64,000 bases of DNA, from assembly GCA_048938895.1 (NCBI GenBank), contig JBHLLU010000009.1, positions 35,800-99,799 on the forward strand. The letters are read 5' to 3'. This document shows, piece by piece, positions 32,600-45,541 of the stretch. The notes beneath the pieces are model-generated. The model made no database searches. It was not told the DNA's origin and saw nothing but the letters and a program-made list of their open reading frames with translations. The position numbers were made by a program, and so were the translations under genes. The stretch comes from Promethearchaeota archaeon. Its GTDB lineage: Archaea > Asgardarchaeota > Lokiarchaeia > Sigyniarchaeales > SOKP01. Position 1 is the stretch's first letter; every line of letters starts with the position of its first letter.

Positions 32600-33496
32600 T
32601 TAGATTATTGTTATTCCTGAAAAATAACCAACACAATATCCATCTATTATTCCTGTTCTTTCAGAACTCGCATAATATTTCAATAATTCACCATGAGTCG
32701 CATTAAGATTTTTACTTATTAACATCATGGTGGTGATCGTCTGAGGTCCACAAATTGATGTTTGTAAAGCCCTATTTAGCGTTTTTTCAGGATCTAAGCT
32801 TTTAAATGCGTCGATTACATCTAAATCAATTTTTTTAAATTTTTCTAATTGTTCTTTGTTGTTTACTTGTTTATGAGACATATCTGAAGATGCAACGATA
32901 ATCACGTCTTTATTTGATGAGCTAATTGCCTTAGCAATATCATCGGCAATTTCATTTAGTACTTTATAATCTCTAGTTCCCGCAATTTTGATGGTTACAA
33001 TTCTTACCTCTTCACCAAGAGAACAATATTTTATAAAAGGTAATTGAATTTCGATATTATGTTCTTGTTCGGAATACCCAATAAATAAGGATTTATCATC
33101 TTCAATTATTTTGCTAGAATTTACTATTGCTTCAGATAATTCATGATCGATAGTAAGATTTCCTAGTGGAGTTTCCCATTCTCCGTTCGAAATTAACGCA
33201 ATTTTATGAAAGCCAATATGATCCGTACCAAGAATTATAACAGTATCAGGAATTTTTTCTTTAAATAAGTTAAAATAAGTGTGAGCAGCACAAGGACCTG
33301 AATAGGTCATTCCTGCATGTGGAGAGACTCCTCCTAAAATTCTTCTTTCTTCTTTATGTAGAGTTGTAGGTAATTCTCCAGGACCAAAATGAATATCTGT
33401 AAAATATTCTTTTAAAGCTTCAAGTAAGCTAGTTTTCGTTCCGGGATACCAAGTCCCTGCGTGGGTTGCTCGTCGTATGATCATTTTTTTAGTCAT
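32600..33496 (-). CDS. amrB: AmmeMemoRadiSam system protein B (MEMO1 family)
   Basis: RRATHAGTWYP, SPHAGMTYSG, WETPLG, EHNIEIQLPF, ASSDMSH, ICG, VGY. Confidence 0.92.
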   Translation of the reverse strand: MTKKMIIRRATHAGTWYPGTKTSLLEALKEYFTDIHFGPGELPTTLHKEERRILGGVSPHAGMTYSGPCAAHTYFNLFKEKIPDTVIILGTDHIGFHKIALISNGEWETPLGNLTIDHELSEAIVNSSKIIEDDKSLFIGYSEQEHNIEIQLPFIKYCSLGEEVRIVTIKIAGTRDYKVLNEIADDIAKAISSSNKDVIIVASSDMSHKQVNNKEQLEKFKKIDLDVIDAFKSLDPEKTLNRALQTSICGPQTITTMMLISKNLNATHGELLKYYASSERTGIIDGYCVGYFSGITII

Positions 33497-33604: not shown

Positions 33605-34213
33605 ATGATGGATCAAGCAAAAGATAATCGGGTTAATCTTGATGACATTGAACTACCAGAAAGAATACCTACCAAGTTCATTAATTCAAGAGTGATTGTT
33701 TTTAATCCGCTTTTTGCGTCTTATTTATATGTCAAAGGTATCAATGGTCAACGATTTTTCGGATCACCTTTAGGAATAAATAAGCCTCGATTAGAGTATT
33801 TTTCAAAACCTTCTGAATTATCACTTATAGAAGCATATTATTTATTAGAAAAAGACTACATTACAATTTTTGACGTCGAAGCAGATAAAAATTTAGTAGC
33901 TAAAGAATTTTATATTATCGCTAAAAAAATTCATCACAAATTTGAAGAAAAGTATAAAATCTATAAAGATTTAAGAGAAAAAAACTATATACCAAGACCC
34001 GGATTAAAGTTTGGGGCTGATTTTGTCGTATATCGTCAGGGACCAGGTCTAGAACATTCTCTTTTTATGGTACATGTTTTACCTCATGATTCTGAAATTA
34101 CAGCAATTGATATGGTTAGAGCTGGGCGCTTAGCAACATCGGTGAGAAAGAAATTTGTGATCGCAAATCCGCTTACGTGTAGTTACTATTTTTTTGAATG
34201 GTTTAAGCCATGA
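33605..34213 (+). CDS. endA: tRNA-intron endonuclease (single-unit type)
   Basis: LSLIEAYYL, YKDLREKNY, GLKFGADFVVY, EHS, RLATSVRKK (Tyr/His/Lys triad). Confidence 0.92.
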   Translation: MMDQAKDNRVNLDDIELPERIPTKFINSRVIVFNPLFASYLYVKGINGQRFFGSPLGINKPRLEYFSKPSELSLIEAYYLLEKDYITIFDVEADKNLVAKEFYIIAKKIHHKFEEKYKIYKDLREKNYIPRPGLKFGADFVVYRQGPGLEHSLFMVHVLPHDSEITAIDMVRAGRLATSVRKKFVIANPLTCSYYFFEWFKP

Positions 34214-34244: not shown

Positions 34245-36062
34245 TTATTTTACAAAAAGTAATTTTAAGGTCTCATCGAGAAGTCTATCTTTTAATTTTT
34301 CAATTTCAGTAAAATTTTCGTTTGGTATAGAGTGAGTAGCTTCAATTATATCGTTCATTACCTCATCTTCTTTCGAATCTTCGAATTTATAGCCTTCTTT
34401 TAAGAGTTTCTTACCCTCATTGAACAGTAAAAGAATTATTTTAATAATTCCTAATAACTTTTTATAATCTGTAAAATTATCAATTTCTTCAAAAGCATTT
34501 TGAATTAAAAAACCATTCCTAATCAAATTGGCAATGAAAAGGTGTAATCTTTGATCATCCGGTAAATTTTTTTTTCCAACAAGTTGCATTACAGATACCA
34601 AGTCAGTTTCTTTTGATAATATCTCATCTACTTGTTTTCTACATCCTACCCAAGTAATATCTATCATTGGCCAATAAAAGTCTTTTTCTAACCACCATTC
34701 TGAAACGTAATCAGGATAATTAGAATATGATTTTAACCAATTAATGGCAGGATAGTGCTTTAGGTACGACAGACTCATATCTAAAGTTAATAATCCTTGA
34801 ACTAAACGTTTAGTAGCAGCTGTTACTGGTTCGCTTAGATCTCCTGCGGGAGGTGATATTGAACTAATAATTGTTAATGATCCGATACTATGTTTACCTA
34901 AATTATCTGTTCCTAAAGATTTAATAACACCAGCTCGTTCATAGAAGCTAGAAAGTCTTGTGGGTAAATAAGCAGGATATCCTTCTTCTGCGGGCATTTC
35001 TTCTAGTAATCCAGAAATTTCTCTGAGAGATTCTGCCCATCTTGAAGTACTATCAGCGATAACAGCAACATCATATCCCATTTCTCTATAATACTCTGCA
35101 AAAGTGACTCCTGAAAAAAGACTTGCTTCACGAGCCGATACAGGCATATTTGAAGAATTAGCTATAACAATTATATGTTCTAATAAGGGGCGTTGGTTTT
35201 TAGTATCATAAATTTCCGCAAATTGTTTTAAGATATTAGCAATTTCATTACCTGGTTCGCCACAACCAATAAAAATAATTATATCTACATTAGAAAATTT
35301 TGCTATGGTTTGTAATAGAACAGTTTTTCCAGTGCCAAATCCTCCAGGAATAGCAAATGTTCCTCCCTTTGCAAGTGGAAATAACAAATCTATTACCCGT
35401 TGACCTGTTATTAATGGTTTAAAAGGCTTAATTTTACTACTATAGGGTCTAGTTCTAAAAACTGGCCATTTTTGTAGCATAGAAAAAGAAAGTTCTTGAT
35501 CATTTCCTACCAATCGATAAATTTCATCAATTATAGTATAATCTCCCTCTCCAGCAATAAAAGATATTTTTCCAAAAGATCCTGGAGGAACCATAATCTT
35601 ATGTTCAATTATCGGTGTTTCTTGAACAGTTCCAATAATATCCCCACTATTTACTATTTCATTTACGTTTCTCAATGGTTTAAAATACCACTTTTTAGTT
35701 CGTGATAATGGTGAAAATTCAATCCCACGATTTAATTTACCATCTTTATTTTGATTAAAAATCTTTTTTAAAGGCCTTTGAATCCCATCAAAAACATTTG
35801 TTAATAAACCAGGACCTAATTCCATAGATAATGATTCTTGAAGGCTTATAACCTTATCATTTAATTTTAAACTTTGAGTGTTATCAAAACATTGAGCGAC
35901 AATATAATTCGAATATATTTGAATGACTTCACCTATAATGTTATATTTAGTAATTTTAATTAAATCATGAAGTCGTATTTCTCCCTCTAATCCTTTCACT
36001 TCAATTAAAGAACCCTTAATTGATTGGATTATACCATATGTAGATCCATCCTCAAATTCCAT
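34245..36062 (-). CDS. A/V-type ATP synthase subunit A paralog (GCGEPGNE variant)
   Basis: Full-length homolog of 40837..42687 with P-loop GGFGTGKT, DSTSRWAE and PAEEGYPAYL; conserved GER replaced by GEP. Confidence 0.92.
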   Translation of the reverse strand: MEFEDGSTYGIIQSIKGSLIEVKGLEGEIRLHDLIKITKYNIIGEVIQIYSNYIVAQCFDNTQSLKLNDKVISLQESLSMELGPGLLTNVFDGIQRPLKKIFNQNKDGKLNRGIEFSPLSRTKKWYFKPLRNVNEIVNSGDIIGTVQETPIIEHKIMVPPGSFGKISFIAGEGDYTIIDEIYRLVGNDQELSFSMLQKWPVFRTRPYSSKIKPFKPLITGQRVIDLLFPLAKGGTFAIPGGFGTGKTVLLQTIAKFSNVDIIIFIGCGEPGNEIANILKQFAEIYDTKNQRPLLEHIIVIANSSNMPVSAREASLFSGVTFAEYYREMGYDVAVIADSTSRWAESLREISGLLEEMPAEEGYPAYLPTRLSSFYERAGVIKSLGTDNLGKHSIGSLTIISSISPPAGDLSEPVTAATKRLVQGLLTLDMSLSYLKHYPAINWLKSYSNYPDYVSEWWLEKDFYWPMIDITWVGCRKQVDEILSKETDLVSVMQLVGKKNLPDDQRLHLFIANLIRNGFLIQNAFEEIDNFTDYKKLLGIIKIILLLFNEGKKLLKEGYKFEDSKEDEVMNDIIEATHSIPNENFTEIEKLKDRLLDETLKLLFVK

Positions 36063-36099: not shown

Positions 36100-36501
36100 T
36101 TATTTAATTGAAGCACCACAAATGGGGCATTTTTTTACATAACTCGCAATTACCATTCCACAATTTTCACATTTTTTGATAAGAGGTTCTCGATATTTAA
36201 AATTAAGACTAATACCAGCGAGTTTCTTTAAATCAGGCTCTGGTTTGTACTCTTCTCTCCTCTTGATAGGTTGAGTTCTTCTTTGTTTTTCAGGAAAAAG
36301 ATCATCATACATTTTCTTTTTTTTCCTGTTTCTAAAAATGAATCCTAAAAATGTTAAAAAGATAAAACTGATAATTAAGATAACAATTATGATATTTGTT
36401 TTAAATTCAATTAAAATATAATAGAGAATAAATAATCCTATTAGTAGTAGAACTAAAGTGACCGTATTTTTCTTTGAGGATTTTTCTTTATTATTCTCCA
36501 T
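36100..36501 (-). CDS. Two-TM membrane protein with C-terminal zinc ribbon, inside the ATP synthase operon
   Basis: Two hydrophobic helices, then CENC...CPIC. Confidence 0.7.
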   Translation of the reverse strand: MENNKEKSSKKNTVTLVLLLIGLFILYYILIEFKTNIIIVILIISFIFLTFLGFIFRNRKKKKMYDDLFPEKQRRTQPIKRREEYKPEPDLKKLAGISLNFKYREPLIKKCENCGMVIASYVKKCPICGASIK

Positions 36502-36529: not shown

Positions 36530-38785
36530 TTATAAATATTTTTTTGATATATATTTTTCAGCTTCGACAATATCCTTTTGGGTTTTCTTTGATTCAATTT
36601 CTCTTTCAATTTCTTCAAATATTACATCTTTATCTACACTTATTTTAAATTCAATCTTCGAAAAGTTGTTATCTAAATAGAATGGATAAAATTGGGTTCC
36701 GGAACCATGAAAAAACTTGAAAAAGAATTCATAAAAATTTAATCGCAAAGCGTTTAAGAAAACTAATAAGGCTTCGATAAGTATAACGACGAGGTTGCCA
36801 AATGTTAAGCCTATAAGCCTTACTAATTCAGCAAAAAAATCCTCCCCATGGATTAAATTAGCCATTGCCTCTATAGCAATCATTAAAGCAATATGTGCTA
36901 ATGCTAATGCTAAGAGTCGGACATATGAGGCAACATTACTTATTATAGATAACATAGTTTCAAAAGTTTCCATTGATCCTTCTCCCAATAGTTCTTTATA
37001 GGTTTCTCTTTTTAAGTAGGATACATGAAATATCTTACCAAGAGGTTTTAAAATAATTAATAATATCCCCGGTATTAGGGGTAATAAAATCGGATATGGT
37101 GGTGCTAGCCATGCGTTTAAATCAAATTTATATACAAATACTAGAACAGTACCGCCTGTTAATAACAATATCTTGATTAAAGAATCTGAAATTGCTAAAT
37201 ATTTCCTTGATTGTCTCCAATAATTCAAAAATTGTATAAACCAACCTAAATTAATATGTAATACCCCAATTATTATTGTGAATAAAAATACAGTTATAAT
37301 ATTTCCTAGGGGATTAGTCCAGATAGGATGTAGCTGAAATAGAACATTCCCACCAATTTCTATTTCTTGCATTCCAAAAAATTCTCCGTACAACAAGCCA
37401 AATAAACATGCTCCCCAACCACAATAGAAGATAATCCAACAAAAATTTAGAAAATCTGTTCCTTTTTTATTCCTAAAAATAATTGCACCTATTAAACCTG
37501 CGATTATTAGTACGATTCCATGGCCTATATCCCCAAACATCATCCCAAATAAGAGAGGAAAGATGATTGCTAAAAAGGGTGTAGGGTCAATTTCAGCATA
37601 AGAAGGGGTACCATACATTCTAGTTAAAGTTTCAAAAGGTCTTACAAAAAAATTATTTTTCATTATTCGTGGGGTTTCATCTCTTAAATCTTTATTTATG
37701 TCTAGTTCTTTTGATTTAAAATCTTCGTCTTTAAAAGATTGACCTCCTTTAGCTTTTTTTGGATTTAATTCCTGTTCTTGTTCTTCAGGTAAAACAAGTG
37801 GCTTTTTTGAAATTTCAACTGAATGAATTGTTATCTGATCTTTAAAAATATCCATTAGTCTCCGTTGTACAGGCTCTTTTTTATCCTCTGGAATAAAAAA
37901 TTCGATTTCGGATCGATTTTTAGATATTTCCTTGAATTGCCTTTCAGCCCAATTATACTCTTCAACATTTGTAACTATTTCATACATAGCGGCGAATAAT
38001 ATTAAATTGTCATCTCTTAATCGTTCTAATTCTTTTACGTACCTTTCAAACGTGTTCTTTATCAAGTTTAGTTCACTGTTGATCCTAGAGATATTAATCC
38101 CGTCAGAAAGTAAATACTTCTTCAAAATTGGTATTTCTTCAGCATGGGTTATACGAATTCTTTCTTTTAAATCATCTTCTTTATCTACTGGATAAATTGT
38201 ATAAAAAAGGATTCTATCATCTGAAATATCTTGAGTTTCATAAAAATTTGGAAATTTTGAGAAATCAAAAAGATTTTTAACATTAATTAAGTTTTTCGAA
38301 AACGTGACGAATACTCTAAAGGCTAATACATCTAAATTTGATAAATCATCTCGGGAAAGATTGATCTTTTCTAAAAATGTGTAACCTTCCTTAATAGTCT
38401 TCATTTTATTTAGTTCAATTTCCACTTTTGCAATATACCTTTCTAATTCAGCAACACGGTTGCTATAAAAATCTACTTCTTCTAACATATGGTTAATTAA
38501 TTCATCAATATCTTTCACAGTGAACTCTTTTCGTTCATCTTTATGAGGCCTAATATTCTGTAAATCGATAACTGAGATTTTGAGTGATTTAAATAATTCT
38601 TCAGTATTAGCTCTCAATCTCTTAATTCTTTCAATAATATTGTCTCCTTTTTTTTGAGGTTCCTCGGTTTGCTCTTTTGGTTTTATATGAATTAAATTTA
38701 TTTGAGACAATTCCTGAAGAAGAAGATCTTTAAAATTATTACTTATAGTAACATCGAATAAACACATCATTGTCTTATTTGTCAT
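36530..38785 (-). CDS. atpI: A/V-type ATP synthase subunit I (a)
   Basis: PFETLTRMYGTPSYAEIDPT, FGMMFGDIGHG, SYVRLLALALAH (essential Arg), LRLNFYEFF. Confidence 0.95.
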   Translation of the reverse strand: MTNKTMMCLFDVTISNNFKDLLLQELSQINLIHIKPKEQTEEPQKKGDNIIERIKRLRANTEELFKSLKISVIDLQNIRPHKDERKEFTVKDIDELINHMLEEVDFYSNRVAELERYIAKVEIELNKMKTIKEGYTFLEKINLSRDDLSNLDVLAFRVFVTFSKNLINVKNLFDFSKFPNFYETQDISDDRILFYTIYPVDKEDDLKERIRITHAEEIPILKKYLLSDGINISRINSELNLIKNTFERYVKELERLRDDNLILFAAMYEIVTNVEEYNWAERQFKEISKNRSEIEFFIPEDKKEPVQRRLMDIFKDQITIHSVEISKKPLVLPEEQEQELNPKKAKGGQSFKDEDFKSKELDINKDLRDETPRIMKNNFFVRPFETLTRMYGTPSYAEIDPTPFLAIIFPLLFGMMFGDIGHGIVLIIAGLIGAIIFRNKKGTDFLNFCWIIFYCGWGACLFGLLYGEFFGMQEIEIGGNVLFQLHPIWTNPLGNIITVFLFTIIIGVLHINLGWFIQFLNYWRQSRKYLAISDSLIKILLLTGGTVLVFVYKFDLNAWLAPPYPILLPLIPGILLIILKPLGKIFHVSYLKRETYKELLGEGSMETFETMLSIISNVASYVRLLALALAHIALMIAIEAMANLIHGEDFFAELVRLIGLTFGNLVVILIEALLVFLNALRLNFYEFFFKFFHGSGTQFYPFYLDNNFSKIEFKISVDKDVIFEEIEREIESKKTQKDIVEAEKYISKKYL

Positions 38786-38790
38786 TTAAA

Positions 38791-39447
38791 TCACACATTA
38801 ACTAATTTTTTTTTATAAATTAAATCTTTAGTATTTTTTAATCTTACGAAACTCTCTCGTTGAAGTTCTTCTAGTATATCTTTAATTTTTTTAATTTCTG
38901 AACTTAGTGAGGGAATAATTATATTTTCTAATCCATGAATCCTTCTAGTTATCTTTTTATAGCTTAAAGAATGTTTTAACATTATATCTTCAATTTCAGA
39001 TAAACTAATCATTTTTTTAAAAAGTAGAACTAACATAGGTGTTAAATCGTCTAGAAAATGGCTTGTATTTTCGAATGAATAAGCTGGAAGATTCTCATCT
39101 TTTATAAGTTCATACTCTATATCTGGTACTATGTTTCCGATTCTTTTTATATATTTAATATTAATTGATGGTCTAAATTGGATTTTACTTAAGCTACTGA
39201 TAATTTTAAAATGATTTTTTCCCATTTCTTTATAAGTTTGATGTAATGTAATCATAACTTTAGTTAATAAATTTAAAAACTCTTTGCGTAGCTTTTTATA
39301 ATCATTCCATAAACTTTTAATCTCAAATATTAATTGCTCTTGTTTTAACTCTAAAAAACTTACTCCCTTGACAGCAAAAACTAACCTTTTTTGTAAACTC
39401 AATAAGTTTGTTTTTGTGGGCTTAAATTCTCTAAAACTAATTGTTAT
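38791..39447 (-). CDS. atpD: A/V-type ATP synthase subunit D (probable ATA 39447 or ATT 39441 start)
   Basis: The upstream extension gives FKPTKTNLLSLQKRL...G..LELK, the canonical subunit D N-terminus; also RRIHGLENIIIP and RESFVRLK. Confidence 0.9.
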   Translation of the reverse strand: MTISFREFKPTKTNLLSLQKRLVFAVKGVSFLELKQEQLIFEIKSLWNDYKKLRKEFLNLLTKVMITLHQTYKEMGKNHFKIISSLSKIQFRPSINIKYIKRIGNIVPDIEYELIKDENLPAYSFENTSHFLDDLTPMLVLLFKKMISLSEIEDIMLKHSLSYKKITRRIHGLENIIIPSLSSEIKKIKDILEELQRESFVRLKNTKDLIYKKKLVNV

Positions 39448-39448
39448 T

Positions 39449-40840
39449 TTACACCTGTTCTGTATAATATTTATTTATTAAATTTTGGTGGATTCTGAAT
39501 AATTGATTTTTAGGAATTTCAGACAAAGCTGTCCAGGCAATGTCAAAACTTTCTGAAAAACTTCTATTTTCATCAATTCCTTGATTCAAAAATTTAGTCT
39601 CAAAAACTTGTCCAAATTTTAAATTGGCTTGCTGATTAAATGTTAATCCATCCTCTCCCACAATTGAAATAAGATCTCTAACTTCAAGGGAATTAGAATA
39701 CGAAGCAAGTAATTGGGAACTTATATCGCTATGATCTTCTCTTGTTGTATCTTTACCAATAGAATCCTTCATAAGTCGAGAAATTGATGCTAAAACTTCA
39801 AAAGGAGGGTATATTCCCATTTTATGTAAATTTCTGTTAAGTACCAATTGTCCCTCAGTTATATATCCTGTAGTATCTGGAATCGGATGGGAAATATCAT
39901 CATTTGGCATTGTTAAAATCGGTATCTGGGTTATTGTTCCTTTTTTACCCTTAATTTTACCTGTTCGTTCATATATGGAGGCGAAATCGGTATAGAGATA
40001 TCCAGGATAGCCTTTTCTGCTGGGGATCTCTTCTTTTGCTGAACTTAGCTCTCTTAGAGCTTCTGCATAGTTAGTCATGTCAATTAAAATTACAAGAACA
40101 TGCATATCTTTATCAAAAGCAAAATACTCTGCAGTAGTTAGAGCAACTCTTGGAATAATCAAACGTTCCATTATTGGATCATCCGCAAAATTAATAAAAG
40201 AAATAATATTTTGAATGTTTCCACTTTCTTGAAATCTATTTAAAAAATAAATTGCTTCGTCTTGAATAATCCCAATGCCACAAAAAATAATTAAAAAAGG
40301 TTCTTCAGTTAAGACTTTAGCTTGAGTCACAATTTGAGCGGCTAATGCATTGTGAGGCATCCCTTGCCCACTAAAAATTGGGAGTTTTTGTCCTCTTATT
40401 AGAGTAAAAAGCCCATCTATTACGGATATACCTGTTTGTATGACTTCAGAGGGATAATCTCTGGCAAATGGATTAATAGGAGAACCATTAATATCGCGTT
40501 CTACTTCAGTTATTAGTTCAGAATCTAGAACTTTCTTAGTATTTATATCAATAGGTTTTCCAATTGAATTGAAGGTTCTACCAAACATATCATTCGATAG
40601 TTTAACTTTAAAAGTATCTTCTGTGAAAAGAATTTTAGAATTTTCGGAAGATAATCCTCCTGTATCTTCAAATACTTCTATTACTATGGTTTCTTCATTT
40701 ATTTTAACAACCTGACCACTACGTTCCATTCCATCATTTGTAATAATTTTAACTATCTCCCCATACTGGACATCATGTTCATTACTTAAAAAAATCAGGG
40801 GCCCTACAATCTGTTGTATCTTACCGTAAATTACACTCAT
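39449..40840 (-). CDS. atpB: A/V-type ATP synthase subunit B
   Basis: QTGISVID, RGQKLPIFSG, DMTNYAEALRE, GYPGYLYTD, HPIPDTTGYITEGQ, SISRLM. Confidence 0.96.
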   Translation of the reverse strand: MSVIYGKIQQIVGPLIFLSNEHDVQYGEIVKIITNDGMERSGQVVKINEETIVIEVFEDTGGLSSENSKILFTEDTFKVKLSNDMFGRTFNSIGKPIDINTKKVLDSELITEVERDINGSPINPFARDYPSEVIQTGISVIDGLFTLIRGQKLPIFSGQGMPHNALAAQIVTQAKVLTEEPFLIIFCGIGIIQDEAIYFLNRFQESGNIQNIISFINFADDPIMERLIIPRVALTTAEYFAFDKDMHVLVILIDMTNYAEALRELSSAKEEIPSRKGYPGYLYTDFASIYERTGKIKGKKGTITQIPILTMPNDDISHPIPDTTGYITEGQLVLNRNLHKMGIYPPFEVLASISRLMKDSIGKDTTREDHSDISSQLLASYSNSLEVRDLISIVGEDGLTFNQQANLKFGQVFETKFLNQGIDENRSFSESFDIAWTALSEIPKNQLFRIHQNLINKYYTEQV

Positions 40841-42687
40841 TTCTCTTTTAACACACCATATGATAATTTTAACTTTTCTATTTCATTAACAAGCTTTTTC
40901 TTTAAATTTTCTATTTTGGAAAATTCATCATTAGAGATTGAATAACTAATTCTTAGGATGTCATCAACCACATCAAGATCCTTAATATCTTCAATTAAAT
41001 AACCCGATTTAATTAGTTCTTGCCCTTCTTTATATAATAAAAGAATTAACTTTATTTGCCCAATTAACTTTTTGACGTTGGTGAAATTATCTATATGATC
41101 AAAGGCATTTTGAATTAAATAGCCATTTCTTATCAATCTTGTAATAAAAAGAATTAATTGTTGTTCTTCAGGTAAATTTTCTTCACCAATTAACTGCATT
41201 ATATTTTTCAATTCATTCTCTTGTGAAAGAATATTATTTATTTGATTTCTGCATTCATACCAATCGATGTTGATCTCTGGCCAGAAAATATCCTTTTCAG
41301 CCCACCATTCAACTATATAATCTGGATAATTTGAATATGAATTCAACCAATTTATTGCAGGATAATGTTTAGAATAAGCTAAATTTGCATCCAGAGCCCA
41401 AAAAGCTTGGACAAATCGTTTTGTCGTTGCGGTTACTGGTTCACTAAAATCTCCAGAGGGTGGTGATACGGATCCTATAATCGTTAAAGACCCAAATCTT
41501 TCTTTATTAGAATTATTTTCCCCTAAAAGGTTTACAACTCCAGCTCTTTCATAAAAACTTGAGATTTTTGATGGTAAATATGCGGGATATCCCTCTTCAG
41601 CAGGCATTTCTTCCAACAAACCTGAAATTTCTCGTAAAGATTCTGCCCATCTGGAGGTACTATCTGCTAGTACTGCAACATCATACCCCATATCACGATA
41701 ATATTCCCCAATTGTTACTCCAGAAAAGATACTTGCTTCTCGGGCAGATACAGGCATGTTTGATGTATTTGCAATCAGTATTATGCGATCTAATAATGGT
41801 CTTCCACTTTTTGGATCTGTCAATTCTGAAAATTGCTTTAAAACATCTGCAATTTCATTTCCTCGTTCTCCACATCCAACAAAAATTATTACGTCAGCAT
41901 TACACCATTTAGCTAAAGATTGTTGTATAACAGTTTTTCCAGTTCCGAATCCGCCTGGCACAGCTACAGTTCCTCCTTTTGCTATGGGGAATAATAAATC
42001 TATAACACGCATACCGGTTATTAATGGTTCAACCGGGCTTTCTCGCCTTTTATAGGGTCTACTTTTAGTTATTGGCCATTTTTGGAGCATTGAGAAAGAT
42101 TTTTCACTACCATTGGTATGAACAAAATAAATTTCATCTTCGATCGTATATTCTCCTTCTGGAACCATATGTGTTAATTTTCCAGAGATTCCGATTGGTA
42201 CGAGTATTCTATGTTCAATTAGAATAGTTTCCTGTACAGTTCCAATAATATCTCCACTACTCACGAAATCACCAACTTTTTTTAATGGTTTAAAATACCA
42301 TTTCTTAATTCTAGATAAGGATGGTAGATCATTACCTCTTTGTAAAAACCCTTTATGTGTACTTTTAAAAGTGATGTCCAATGGCCTCTGAATACCATCG
42401 AAAACGTTGCCTAATAATCCAGGACCCAATTCCATTGATAACGGTTCTCTTAAATTAACTACATTTTCCCCGAGTTTCAAATTATCAGTATTCTCGAAAC
42501 ATTGAGCAGTCACATGATTTGAATAGATCTGGATCACTTCCCCCAAGATGTTGTGTTCTGATTCTCTTATTAGGTCATGAATGCGAACTTCTTTCTCAAA
42601 TCCTTTTATTTCAATTAATGAACCATTTATTGATGATATATACCCAGATGTAGGTTCATTATACAATTTGTTGTTTGTTTTAGTCAT
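40837..42687 (-). CDS. atpA: A/V-type ATP synthase subunit A (canonical)
   Basis: GGFGTGKT, GCGERGNE, ANTSNMPVSAREAS, DSTSRWAE, SPPSGDFSEPVT. Confidence 0.96.
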   Translation of the reverse strand: MTKTNNKLYNEPTSGYISSINGSLIEIKGFEKEVRIHDLIRESEHNILGEVIQIYSNHVTAQCFENTDNLKLGENVVNLREPLSMELGPGLLGNVFDGIQRPLDITFKSTHKGFLQRGNDLPSLSRIKKWYFKPLKKVGDFVSSGDIIGTVQETILIEHRILVPIGISGKLTHMVPEGEYTIEDEIYFVHTNGSEKSFSMLQKWPITKSRPYKRRESPVEPLITGMRVIDLLFPIAKGGTVAVPGGFGTGKTVIQQSLAKWCNADVIIFVGCGERGNEIADVLKQFSELTDPKSGRPLLDRIILIANTSNMPVSAREASIFSGVTIGEYYRDMGYDVAVLADSTSRWAESLREISGLLEEMPAEEGYPAYLPSKISSFYERAGVVNLLGENNSNKERFGSLTIIGSVSPPSGDFSEPVTATTKRFVQAFWALDANLAYSKHYPAINWLNSYSNYPDYIVEWWAEKDIFWPEINIDWYECRNQINNILSQENELKNIMQLIGEENLPEEQQLILFITRLIRNGYLIQNAFDHIDNFTNVKKLIGQIKLILLLYKEGQELIKSGYLIEDIKDLDVVDDILRISYSISNDEFSKIENLKKKLVNEIEKLKLSYGVLKEK

Positions 42688-43405
42688 AATTTTTCAAATA
42701 TTCTTTAATAGCCAATTTTTGATTCTGGATAAATTTTTCATAGTTTTGAACTATTTCGTTAATTTCTAAATAAATGTTTGAGAATAATTTTGAAAACTCA
42801 ATTTCAATTAGGGATCTTTTTTTATTTATTAAACTTGTAATCGAGAAATCATAAGAAATATTCATCTTAGTTTGCAAAATTCTAAATCCTCCAATAAACT
42901 CATCTTTGGAAGGATTTAATGTTACTTTATTTTCAAATATTTTTTGAATTTCCTCGAAATTTTGGATAAAATATTCATAATCTCTTGAATTTAAATTAAT
43001 AACAATTTCAGGTGGTTTATCTATTAAATGTTTTATTGAATCAAAGATACCCAATAAGAATTTTACATAATTTGCATAATTATCATGTATCTTCTTTTCG
43101 AGTTCCTTATTTAAATCAGTAATTAGATTTGAAATTAGTAGGTTTTTAACATTTAAAGTCTCCTCCTTTATTTTCAAAAGAGTTGAAGATAAGGCATTAT
43201 TTAGATGTTTATTATAAGTTTCAATGAAATTGGATTTTATTTTTGAGGAACTCTCTTCTATTCTTTCCTTATATCTCTTTCTTAATTCTGCAATTTGAAA
43301 GAGAGCCTGCTGATCTAGCTGTTTAATCTCATCTTTAGCTTTTTCAATAAGATATAATCCTAGCTTTCCAAATCTTTCTTTTGAAGTGCTAATTTCTGAT
43401 ATAAT
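42680..43405 (-). CDS. atpE: A/V-type ATP synthase subunit E (probable ATT 43405 or ATA 43402 start)
   Basis: C-terminal FIGGFRI...YDFSI. The frame stays open 76 codons upstream of TTG 43177 and encodes the N-terminal coiled coil (LIEKAKDEIKQL...). Confidence 0.85.
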   Translation of the reverse strand: MISEISTSKERFGKLGLYLIEKAKDEIKQLDQQALFQIAELRKRYKERIEESSSKIKSNFIETYNKHLNNALSSTLLKIKEETLNVKNLLISNLITDLNKELEKKIHDNYANYVKFLLGIFDSIKHLIDKPPEIVINLNSRDYEYFIQNFEEIQKIFENKVTLNPSKDEFIGGFRILQTKMNISYDFSITSLINKKRSLIEIEFSKLFSNIYLEINEIVQNYEKFIQNQKLAIKEYLKNYD

Positions 43406-43406
43406 T

Positions 43407-43736
43407 TTACATCTCCGAACTTATAATTTGTTCTATTGCTTCAAAAATTTTATTAAAAAATATGTCTCGGTTCTCAATATCGGATTGAAATATGTTTGGT
43501 ATTAAATAAATAAATGGAGTTTTATTGCTCATCTTGAATTCTAAAATAGTATCAATAATTTCTGTTGGCAAATCCAAAAAAATAATTATCATTCCTATTG
43601 AAGGTTCTTTAGTCAATATATCAAAGTTCTTAAGAAAATCCTCTTTATTTTCAATAATTGTACCATCTATTCCTAGAAGTCCAAATAGTAAGACAATATC
43701 TTCCTCACCTAATATATGTATTTTTTGATCAACCAT
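43407..43736 (-). CDS. atpF: A/V-type ATP synthase subunit F
   Basis: KIHILGEEDIVLLFGLLGI...IGMIII...P...IP; operon position. Confidence 0.9.
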   Translation of the reverse strand: MVDQKIHILGEEDIVLLFGLLGIDGTIIENKEDFLKNFDILTKEPSIGMIIIFLDLPTEIIDTILEFKMSNKTPFIYLIPNIFQSDIENRDIFFNKIFEAIEQIISSEM

Positions 43737-44047
43737 TAAAAATCAAATCCAATATCTTTTATTAATAGTTTAAATAAAGCTTTTTTAGAGCTTTGATATT
43801 GATTATCCATTTTATTCTTGAAATCTTCTATTTTTTTTGCAATAAAGGAATTTTCGTCGCTTAATATTTTTAGTTGAGAATTTAAAGCGGATTCAACTAT
43901 TTTATTGTTATTTTCTATTCTGTTTTCCATATACTTTTCTTGTTCAATTCTTAGATCTTCCAATTCAGTTAGATTTAAACTCTTAGCTTTATCAATTAAA
44001 TCTTTATAAATATTCTCGATTTCCTTAACCCATTCAAAAATTTCCAT
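43736..44047 (-). CDS. A/V-type ATP synthase peripheral stalk subunit H/G (probable)
   Basis: 103-aa helical charged protein (VKEIE...LIDKAK) within the operon. Confidence 0.65.
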   Translation of the reverse strand: MEIFEWVKEIENIYKDLIDKAKSLNLTELEDLRIEQEKYMENRIENNNKIVESALNSQLKILSDENSFIAKKIEDFKNKMDNQYQSSKKALFKLLIKDIGFDF

Positions 44048-44066
44048 GTTTTTCTCAATATCCTTT

Positions 44067-45125
44067 TCAATTAATTAACTTCAAATTTTCATATTTCTTG
44101 TTTATAATTTCAATTACTTTAGGAATTATCTCAAATCGAATCTCATTCTCTTTTTTGATTATAAGTTCTAATATTCTGAAAATTGTGATTAAATCAATAT
44201 CGTCCATCTGTATTTTTAATTTTCTAAAATAGTATTTTAAATATATCTTTTCAATTGAGTGGACTAAATGTTCTTGGTCAATGACTACGTTTTTAAAAAA
44301 TCTTTTTATTTCTCTTATGTTTTTGATATAATTTTCTATTAAAGACACTAGTTTGTCAGGATCTTCAATAGTTAATAAATAATCAATTTTTCCCTTATCC
44401 AAAAATAAGTAATAATCTACTATAAACTGGGTTAATAATTCCTTTTCAATTTTATTTTTTAAGCCTCTATAGATAGTATTTATATTGTAGATTTCTGTTT
44501 TGTATTTAACAAAATCAGTTATTATTTTTTGTTCTTTTGTATTCAAATTCTTTAATTGACTTATCATTTTTTCATAATAAAATTTATCTAAAAAAGCTTC
44601 TAAAACAAAAATTTCATTATAATTTTTAAAGTAAGTAAGTCCTTCACTAATAGGGATATTATAACTAGTTTTTTTAAATATTAATTGAAATTCTTCCAAA
44701 GAACTAATTTTTAGCAAATCTTCAATAAATTCTATGTTATCTAAATACTCTTCAACTTGGAAATTTACTTTCTGTCTTTTACTTTTGAGATCCATTCCTA
44801 AGATTGACGCAATTATAATTTGTTTAATATTCATTATTTCGAATTTTTGAAGATAATTTTTTAAAAATACTCTCATGTTTTGTGGTGAATAAAGTATGAT
44901 TTTCCCAACCAGTTTGATATAATTAGAATATAAGGCTAATTCGATGTCTTCGATAGTTTTAGCCTTAACTTTTAAATCAGGATAAAATGGTGTTATTAAA
45001 TCTAAGACTTTATTGATATTTTTAGCATTATAAAAATCCTGTAAAGATGTATCATCCATAATTAGGCTTTTTAAAAAAGCTAATTTAATATATGTATATG
45101 CGTAGGAAGGAACTATTGTACTCAA
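44067..45125 (-). CDS. atpC: A/V-type ATP synthase subunit C
   Basis: YAY..., EIMNIKQII, LEAFLDKFYY, EIYNINTIYRG, KENEIR. Start likely TTG 45125 behind GGTGA, which removes the overlap with K. Confidence 0.88.
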   Translation of the reverse strand: MSTIVPSYAYTYIKLAFLKSLIMDDTSLQDFYNAKNINKVLDLITPFYPDLKVKAKTIEDIELALYSNYIKLVGKIILYSPQNMRVFLKNYLQKFEIMNIKQIIIASILGMDLKSKRQKVNFQVEEYLDNIEFIEDLLKISSLEEFQLIFKKTSYNIPISEGLTYFKNYNEIFVLEAFLDKFYYEKMISQLKNLNTKEQKIITDFVKYKTEIYNINTIYRGLKNKIEKELLTQFIVDYYLFLDKGKIDYLLTIEDPDKLVSLIENYIKNIREIKRFFKNVVIDQEHLVHSIEKIYLKYYFRKLKIQMDDIDLITIFRILELIIKKENEIRFEIIPKVIEIINKKYENLKLIN

Positions 45126-45181
45126 AAAATAATCACCAAATTGTTGAAAATATGAAAAATTTATACATTTAAAGACAGAAT

Positions 45182-45541
45182 TCATGCATATCCAGGAATC
45201 AATGTCCATAAAAGTATAGCAATTATTAGCCCGTATATTGCTAATGCTTCACATAAAGCAACAACTAAAAAGGCTTTAAAAAATGTTTCTTCTCGTTCCG
45301 AAAGTGAAGAGATTGCTGCAACACCAACAGTTTTTAAAGCGATTGCACTCCCTAATACTGCAGCTGCGACTGAGATTGATGCCGCTATCCCTAGTAATCC
45401 TGCAGTTGTTGTGTTATAGTAATCATAAGTACCTTGAGCAGATGCAAATGTTATTAAGCCATCGACTGAAAACAACACGATAAATATCAATACAATTTGG
45501 AATATTCCTAATAATAGATAAAATTTTTTTTTTCCATTCAA
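45182..45541 (-). CDS. atpK: A/V-type ATP synthase subunit K (c), single hairpin with N-terminal leader
   Basis: AAVLGSAIA...GVAAI...LCEALAIYGLIIA; hydrophobic N-terminal extension ending ASAQ. Confidence 0.92.
   Translation of the reverse strand: MNGKKKFYLLLGIFQIVLIFIVLFSVDGLITFASAQGTYDYYNTTTAGLLGIAASISVAAAVLGSAIALKTVGVAAISSLSEREETFFKAFLVVALCEALAIYGLIIAILLWTLIPGYA

Follow-up and report, generated by a model that had tools for sequence, protein, structure and literature searches.

The A-type ATP synthase operon of a Promethearchaeota archaeon (Asgardarchaeota; Lokiarchaeia; Sigyniarchaeales; GenBank assembly GCA_048938895.1, contig JBHLLU010000009.1) ends in a second gene for the catalytic subunit A. 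The operon lies on the minus strand of the window analysed here, a stretch of 64,000 nucleotides (nt) covering positions 35,800 to 99,799 of the contig, and all coordinates are counted from the first letter of that window. The last gene, termed A' hereafter, encodes a paralogue of the canonical catalytic subunit (A) in which the arginine of the GER motif is replaced by proline; the 133-residue zinc-ribbon protein encoded directly upstream is called Zn. The observation is real: A' is an intact subunit-A paralogue with proline at this position, and neither a private mutation nor an error accounts for it. The argument rests on the following features.

34245..36062, minus strand: A', subunit-A paralogue of 605 amino acids (aa), final gene of the ATPase operon (open reading frame, Pfam, NCBIfam)
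35253..35255, minus strand: CCA codon of Pro270, which replaces the phosphate-binding Arg of the GER motif (sequence)
35256..35258, minus strand: GAA codon of Glu269, the catalytic glutamate, kept (sequence)
35322..35345, minus strand: Walker A motif or P-loop, GGFGTGKT, residues 240-247 (sequence)
35118..35120, minus strand: CTT codon of Leu315, a residue diagnostic of A' (Ile in all A; column comparison)
34569..34571, minus strand: AAA codon of Lys498, first position of the rotor-contact loop equivalent to DELSEED (Glu in A; alignment)
39449..40840, minus strand: subunit B, sole copy in the genome (Pfam, own-genome search)
40837..42687, minus strand: canonical catalytic subunit A, with GCGERGNE (open reading frame, Pfam)

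The A' reading frame begins with ATG and contains no internal stop. A' and A are identical at 383 of 594 positions (64%) in a gap-free alignment, and both contain the Pfam domains PF02874, PF16886, PF00006 and PF22919, all above cutoff in A' and corresponding to the N-terminal beta-barrel, the A-specific barrel-sandwich 'bulge', the nucleotide-binding domain and the V/A C-terminal domain. On the NCBIfam subunit-A model NF003220 (cutoff 470) A' scores 690 bits and A 781 bits, as against 122 bits for A' on the subunit-B model NF003235. Both proteins remain below the cutoff of 972 set for TIGR01043, the equivalog model for archaeal ATP synthase subunit A (675.6 bits for A', 776.4 bits for A), and since the canonical A of the same genome falls short too, this model cannot tell the two apart. 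The closest match in the PDB is subunit A of Pyrococcus horikoshii (1VDZ/3M4Y, E ~1e-160). At the catalytic site A' reads GGT TGT GGC GAA CCA GGT AAT GAA, or GCGEPGNE, and A reads GGA TGT GGA GAA CGA GGA AAT GAA, or GCGERGNE, with the CGA codon of Arg275 at 41863-41865. The Walker B segment ADSTSRW (residue 336) is also intact in A'. The preliminary description of this DNA had reported a diverged but intact second copy of A closing the operon, GEP (CCA) against GER (CGA), a preserved P-loop and catalytic glutamate, and a single subunit B. All of this stands: both codons are read directly in the window, GGFGTGKT and Glu269 are present, and a search of the whole 4.65-Mb assembly finds only these two genes for A and one for B. 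The strand, which is minus, had not been given.

The residue lost from A' is one on which catalysis depends in related enzymes. By our own count on the alignment it corresponds to Arg264 of P. horikoshii A, the closest solved homologue, and by the GER motif we take beta-Arg182 of Escherichia coli F1 to be its equivalent. In the tight site of Enterococcus hirae V1, A-Lys238 and A-Arg262 grip the gamma-phosphate together with the B-Arg350 finger (PMC5095293). The E. coli beta-R182Q and R182K mutants show no ATP synthesis and no binding of inorganic phosphate (Pi), and the ATPase activity of R182Q F1 falls to 0.020 units, against 42 for the wild type, a loss of about 2000-fold; the arginine matters for the binding of MgATP, and MgADP binding is unaffected (PMC3268026). 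The arginine is also widely conserved. Of the top 150 representatives drawn from 50%-identity clusters, 148 cover the site; the residue is arginine in 139 and proline in none, and four keep the glutamate and then have S, K, H or Q. The requirement for this arginine in phosphate binding and catalysis, which the preliminary description had taken as established, is backed by the published work. An AlphaFold2 monomer model of A', built on a 31-row alignment that includes some GER rows and in which Pro270 is 'nearly invariant', was too poor to be used (mean predicted local distance difference test score 62.6, below 50 around residues 268-272); it places Pro270 in a loop just before a helix at 272-283.

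The proline is conserved among relatives of this organism. Their genomes, all of them metagenome bins, were searched and the operons extracted, which allowed 32 second copies to be compared with 48 first copies and outgroups. Proline is present in 32 of 32 A' and arginine in all 48 of the comparison set, and a further genome (G134) carries the variant CCGEPGSE. Four codons encode the proline (CCT in 17 copies, CCA in 13, CCG and CCC in one each); with all four in use, the residue has been held through synonymous change. Every A' retains GE[PR]G[NS]E, catalytic glutamate included, as well as the P-loop pattern G.FG.GK[TS] (GKS in two genomes); Walker B is recognised by regular expression in 30 of the 32 A' and in 43 of 46 A, and the frame is intact in all 32 copies examined. 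Among the best 120 public homologues of A', 72 have GEP, and the named sources among these homologues are Lokiarchaeota or Promethearchaeota bins. The preliminary description had proposed to look for conservation of GEP in Asgard genomes and had named GER in all orthologues as a refutation; in these counts the extracted orthologues of the second copy all have GEP.

A DNA scan of 400 genomes of the phylum delimits the distribution further. Within the window's family the exact C-G-E-P-G-N-E motif occurs in 80 of 135 genomes, and at least seven of its genera retain A'. Elsewhere in the class 0 of 26 genomes carry the motif; in the sister family, which belongs to the same order, the figure is 0 of 14. 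When the family is restricted to genomes at least 95% complete, A' is found in 43 of 63, by a hand count of the motif-scan table to which G134 was added. The remaining 239 genomes of the phylum gave one match (G324), which was taken as chance: it lies on a different contig from the A-like genes of that genome, and a reversed control pattern matched seven times in the 400 genomes. The motif thus occurs in none of the atpA-like genes of the 265 genomes outside the family.

Selection was assessed with the Nei-Gojobori method (NG86) on the closest genome pairs, beyond which synonymous divergence (dS) is saturated. The ratio of nonsynonymous to synonymous divergence (omega) ranges from 0.10 to 0.28 in A', against 0.06-0.13 in A. 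In 97.8% of 406 genome pairs A' has the higher nonsynonymous divergence (dN), the median A'-to-A ratio being 1.22. A' is therefore somewhat relaxed yet clearly under purifying selection, and the neutral evolution that the preliminary description had allowed for is not observed. Only two of 601 columns distinguish A' from A completely (R275 to P270 and I320 to L315), and 166 have the same residue in A and A', conserved to at least 95%. The columns diagnostic of A' or gained by it include no basic residue that might compensate.

The relaxation is unevenly spread over the protein. Across 27 genomes, the mean pairwise divergence of A' relative to that of A is 1.07 in the N-terminal barrel, 1.02 in the linker and 0.96 in the A-specific bulge; it reaches 1.43 in the nucleotide-binding domain, 1.66 in the segment from the P-loop to the arm, 1.33 in the C-terminal domain and 1.98 in the DELSEED-like loop (residues ~490-510). 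The hexamer is tied together by the barrel crown, and the bulge region is turned towards the peripheral stalks. Taken with these roles, the ratios suggest that the parts which seat the subunit in the head are held as strictly in A' as in A, and that the parts concerned with chemistry and with pushing the rotor are relaxed. All 40 A compared begin the DELSEED-like loop with Glu, a residue that A' never has there (K in 24, R in 2, G in 2, Q in 1, and others). In a by-eye alignment this position, Lys498 in the window, coincides with Asp480 of the E. hirae segment 480-DSLSDND-486, which has been equated with the DELSEED rotor-contact loop by its authors (PMC3879392).

The rest of the operon extends upstream of A' as follows.

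36100..36501, minus strand: Zn, small membrane protein of 133 aa carrying a zinc ribbon at its C-terminus, next gene upstream of A'
36530..38785, minus strand: subunit I, the membrane a-subunit (PF01496)
38791..39402, minus strand: subunit D, rotor (PF01813)
42680..45541, minus strand: upstream block of E, F, putative H, C and K/c as a whole
42680-43177, minus strand: subunit E, frame open up to 43420 (Pfam)
43407-43736, minus strand: subunit F (Pfam)
43736-44047, minus strand: putative H, a 103-aa open reading frame in the place of H
44067-45209, minus strand: subunit C (Pfam)
45182-45541, minus strand: subunit K/c (Pfam)

Subunit E would have 165 aa if it began at a TTG; its frame extends over 247 open codons as far as a GTG at 43420, with no ATG among the first 80, so that an alternative start codon, in overlap with the end of F, is probably used. 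Zn is predicted to have two membrane helices and carries a CxxC...CxxC zinc ribbon at its C-terminus; its Pfam zinc-ribbon matches are all sub-threshold and NCBIfam gave none. It follows subunit I in every family operon examined, whether A' is present or not, and is a candidate for a so far undescribed accessory subunit of this Lokiarchaeial enzyme. Beyond A', a tRNA-splicing endonuclease gene (33605-34213, plus strand) and a Memo-like gene (32600-33496, minus strand) border the end of the operon, as they do in most genomes of the family. In some genomes (L059, L060, L063) this pair lies upstream of K, so the operon is there inverted relative to the pair.

The order K-C-H-F-E-A-B-D-I-Zn-A' recurs in every operon with two A genes that was extracted, and the gap between the Zn stop and the A' start is mostly 16-50 nt. 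In the genus's one single-contig genome (G006) the operon is split, with E-A-B-D at ~2.19 Mb and I-Zn-A'-EndA-Memo at ~3.06 Mb, 0.86 Mb apart, and A' has stayed with I and Zn and not with A-B-D. A quick maximum-likelihood search (LG+G4 model) on 79 A and A' sequences places 30 of the 32 A' in one clade, with a Shimodaira-Hasegawa-like approximate likelihood ratio test (SH-aLRT) value of 90; this clade is nested among the A sequences of the family on a short stem (0.055) and branches internally in the same pattern as A.

The two remaining A', both from genus g19 (L061, L062), join their own A in the free tree (SH-aLRT 94). A and A' of this genus are 81% identical, with dS ~0.45 along the whole length, as compared with 57-70% identity and saturated dS elsewhere. 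The g19 A' nevertheless carry the residue typical of A' at eight of ten discriminating columns, including Pro270, Leu315, Leu434 and Lys498, and a single clade of all 32 A' is not rejected (approximately unbiased (AU) test, p = 0.196). Given these two results we set aside an independent origin of A' in g19 and read the genus as a case of partial gene conversion; it looks as though A' was partly converted by the neighbouring A and selection kept the proline from being erased.

On the tree of A alone, at least five changes are needed to explain the presence and absence of A', which is consistent with one gain after the g13 and g14 genera had split off, followed by about four losses. The best explanation of the sequence data is that A' is a functional, vertically inherited paralogue of A that arose once within one family of Lokiarchaeia and would be co-transcribed as the last gene of the sole A-type operon. 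Its repeated loss indicates a role that is accessory or regulatory and not essential.

Three genomes show further peculiarities in their A-like genes. G018, of the same genus as the window and 98% complete, has no subunit-A match at E <= 1e-10 in the whole assembly; either its operon was not assembled or the species has no A-type ATPase. In G082 (L075/L079), which has no A', the single subunit A lies in an open frame of 1157 codons and matches in two pieces, probably owing to an intein shortly after the P-loop; many similar entries of ~1100 aa occur among the 50%-cluster representatives. G022 (L053) has a third A-like gene with GER, 47% identical to A', which lies beside its own B on another contig (C77) and belongs either to a second ATPase of a different type or to contamination.

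As to what A' does, we incline, with moderate confidence and from sequence comparison, to the proposal that it assembles with B into the head as a structural, nucleotide-binding and nearly inactive subunit, throttling or re-gearing the motor. A' would pair with the single B and occupy at least one of the three places that A has in A3B3. Its arginine-less site would still hold nucleotide, MgADP probably better than MgATP, and would neither bind Pi nor stabilise the transition state, so that turnover, if any, would be 1,000- to 10,000-fold slower. A head containing A' would then hydrolyse ATP poorly, which would amount to a built-in throttle, and when driven by the ion gradient it would make fewer ATP per turn. 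The preliminary description had pictured A' in the A3B3 ring as a possible brake or assembly factor, an idea that fits the domain pattern of constraint. Its suggested link to energy limitation is speculative; the sister family has no A' motif in 14 genomes, and A' has been lost repeatedly within the family.

Several points weigh against a nearly inactive ring member. That A' is expressed, binds B, enters the head and is inactive is what we infer from its sequence, the genomes compared are all metagenome bins, and the trees come from quick LG+G4 searches. By exact motif A' is missing from 54 of the 135 genomes of the family, and it has been cleanly deleted from at least seven operons, each of them ending at I-Zn (G012, of the window's own genus, G056, G055, G054, G050, G081 and G046); cells thus manage well in its absence. 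Among C, H, F, E, B, D, I and Zn there is no column that divides the 22 operons having A' from the 8-9 that lack it, and hence no partner residue marks a special position for A'; K and A have one weak column each that tracks its presence. Such absence of co-variation fits A and A' positions that are interchangeable and is no positive evidence for them. The strictness of the proline, at a site where many residues would kill catalysis, suggests a more specific structural role. Finally, F1 mutants in other catalytic residues still rotate, unidirectionally and 1,000- to 10,000-fold more slowly (PMC5380711), so that 'dead' may be too strong a word.

This last result also bears on another possibility, which we judge unlikely, namely that A' is an alternative and still active isoform. 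It would form A'3B3 heads of its own under some conditions, with changed kinetics such as a weaker affinity for ATP or Pi or resistance to product inhibition, and another residue or a bound water would stand in for the arginine. The slow unidirectional rotation of F1 catalytic-site mutants would be in keeping with such an isoform, as would the low omega of A' and the retention of the P-loop, the catalytic glutamate, Walker B and nearly all other residues conserved in A; a strict proline, in place of just any residue, hints at a site that is tuned rather than broken. However, no basic residue that might compensate is found in the diagnostic or gained columns, and in E. coli even the conservative change beta-R182K abolishes synthesis and Pi binding (PMC3268026). 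Moreover, constraint on the nucleotide-binding domain and on the rotor-contact loop is weaker in A' than in A, contrary to what one would expect of a working motor subunit.

Rather improbable, in our estimate, is a natural gear-shift in which one or two of the three A are replaced by A', whose site could neither make nor split ATP. This would lower the yield from three ATP per turn to two or one and raise the ion-per-ATP ratio with the c-ring unchanged. Were it to operate, synthesis could proceed at a smaller ion-motive force and wasteful hydrolysis would be blocked; the ratio of A' to A would determine the gear, and this would be a new way to tune the stoichiometry of a rotary ATP synthase.

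A' might also act outside the rotating head, as an assembly chaperone or storage partner for B or as a nucleotide sensor docking on the stator, and would then not be a stoichiometric member of the ring. Its dispensability in many genomes, the placement of its gene after I and Zn and not beside A-B-D, and the split operon of G006, in which it travels with I-Zn, would suit such a function. We nonetheless find it very doubtful: A' retains the full architecture of A, its N-terminal barrel and bulge are as constrained as those of A, and two columns are all that is diagnostic. Nor is Zn a partner specific to A', because it occurs both with and without it. Decay of a functionless duplicate is highly improbable; A' does evolve somewhat faster than A and has been lost several times, but its frames are intact in 32 of 32 copies, omega is 0.10-0.28, the proline is kept through synonymous turnover, retention extends to at least seven genera of the family, and the A' tree mirrors that of A. 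The chance of a sequencing or assembly error, or of a mutation private to this bin, is negligible in spite of an estimated bin contamination of 7.5%, as both copies stand in one operon on one contig, the same motif occurs in 80 of 135 independent genomes, and it is also present in a public protein 96% identical to A'.

To our knowledge, known rotary ATPases all have three identical catalytic subunits, and their sole inactive ring members, B and alpha, predate the last universal common ancestor. A' represents a second and much younger loss of a catalytic residue, fixed and selected throughout the history of an Asgard family in its sole ATP synthase operon. If it enters the head, nature has set up an experiment in mixed-site rotary catalysis, with a possible control of ATP hydrolysis or of the ion-to-ATP ratio in organisms living close to the thermodynamic limit. 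The difference between A and A' is defined by two residues only (R/P and I/L), and the question is open to direct test. We found no published description of this paralogue in searches of the openly accessible literature or in main-text passages of PMC10656485, bioRxiv 10.64898/2026.10.01.756066 and PMC7997004, which deal with the evolution of ATP synthases and with Asgard transporters. The last of these ascribes an A-type as well as a V-type ATPase to one Loki bin (PMC7997004), a statement that might stem from the two copies of A.

The system closest to A' is the catalytic subunit A of A/V-type enzymes (AtpA/NtpA), which has been solved for P. horikoshii (1VDZ/3M4Y/3I4L), E. hirae (3VR2) and Thermus thermophilus (3A5C). 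Like it, A' has full-length homology, the four domains, the P-loop, the catalytic glutamate and Walker B, and is encoded in an ATPase operon together with B, D, stator and membrane subunits; unlike it, A' has proline for arginine, has lost the first acidic residue of the DELSEED-like loop and coexists with a canonical A. In concept A' resembles the non-catalytic subunits B (A/V-type) and alpha (F-type), being a duplicate of the catalytic subunit whose fold and interfaces are kept and whose catalysis, in the case of A', would be lost. B and alpha are ancient inactive paralogues within the ring that have likewise kept fold and interfaces and lost catalysis (PMC10656485). In contrast to them, A' is young, restricted to one family and easily lost, and shows no sign of a fixed alternating position; it is ~35% identical to B over part of its length, as against 64% to A, and its P-loop is intact, whereas that of B is not. 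The change in A' also recalls the E. coli F1 mutants beta-R182Q and R182K, in that it falls on the GER arginine that we take, by motif, to be equivalent. Those mutants were made in the laboratory and are altered at all three sites, whereas A' is natural and selected, has proline and stands beside a wild-type A. Other A-like proteins without the arginine exist, among them an uncharacterised protein of Paramecium tetraurelia (XP_001447142.1, P0212) and one of the amoeba Luapelamoeba hula (P0234), in which, as in A', the glutamate is kept and the arginine replaced. Together with P0189 and P0249 these show ES, EQ, EK and EH, none has proline, and all are 33-40% identical to A'. They are eukaryotic or of unknown origin and reflect events independent of A', and A paralogues without this arginine may have arisen several times.

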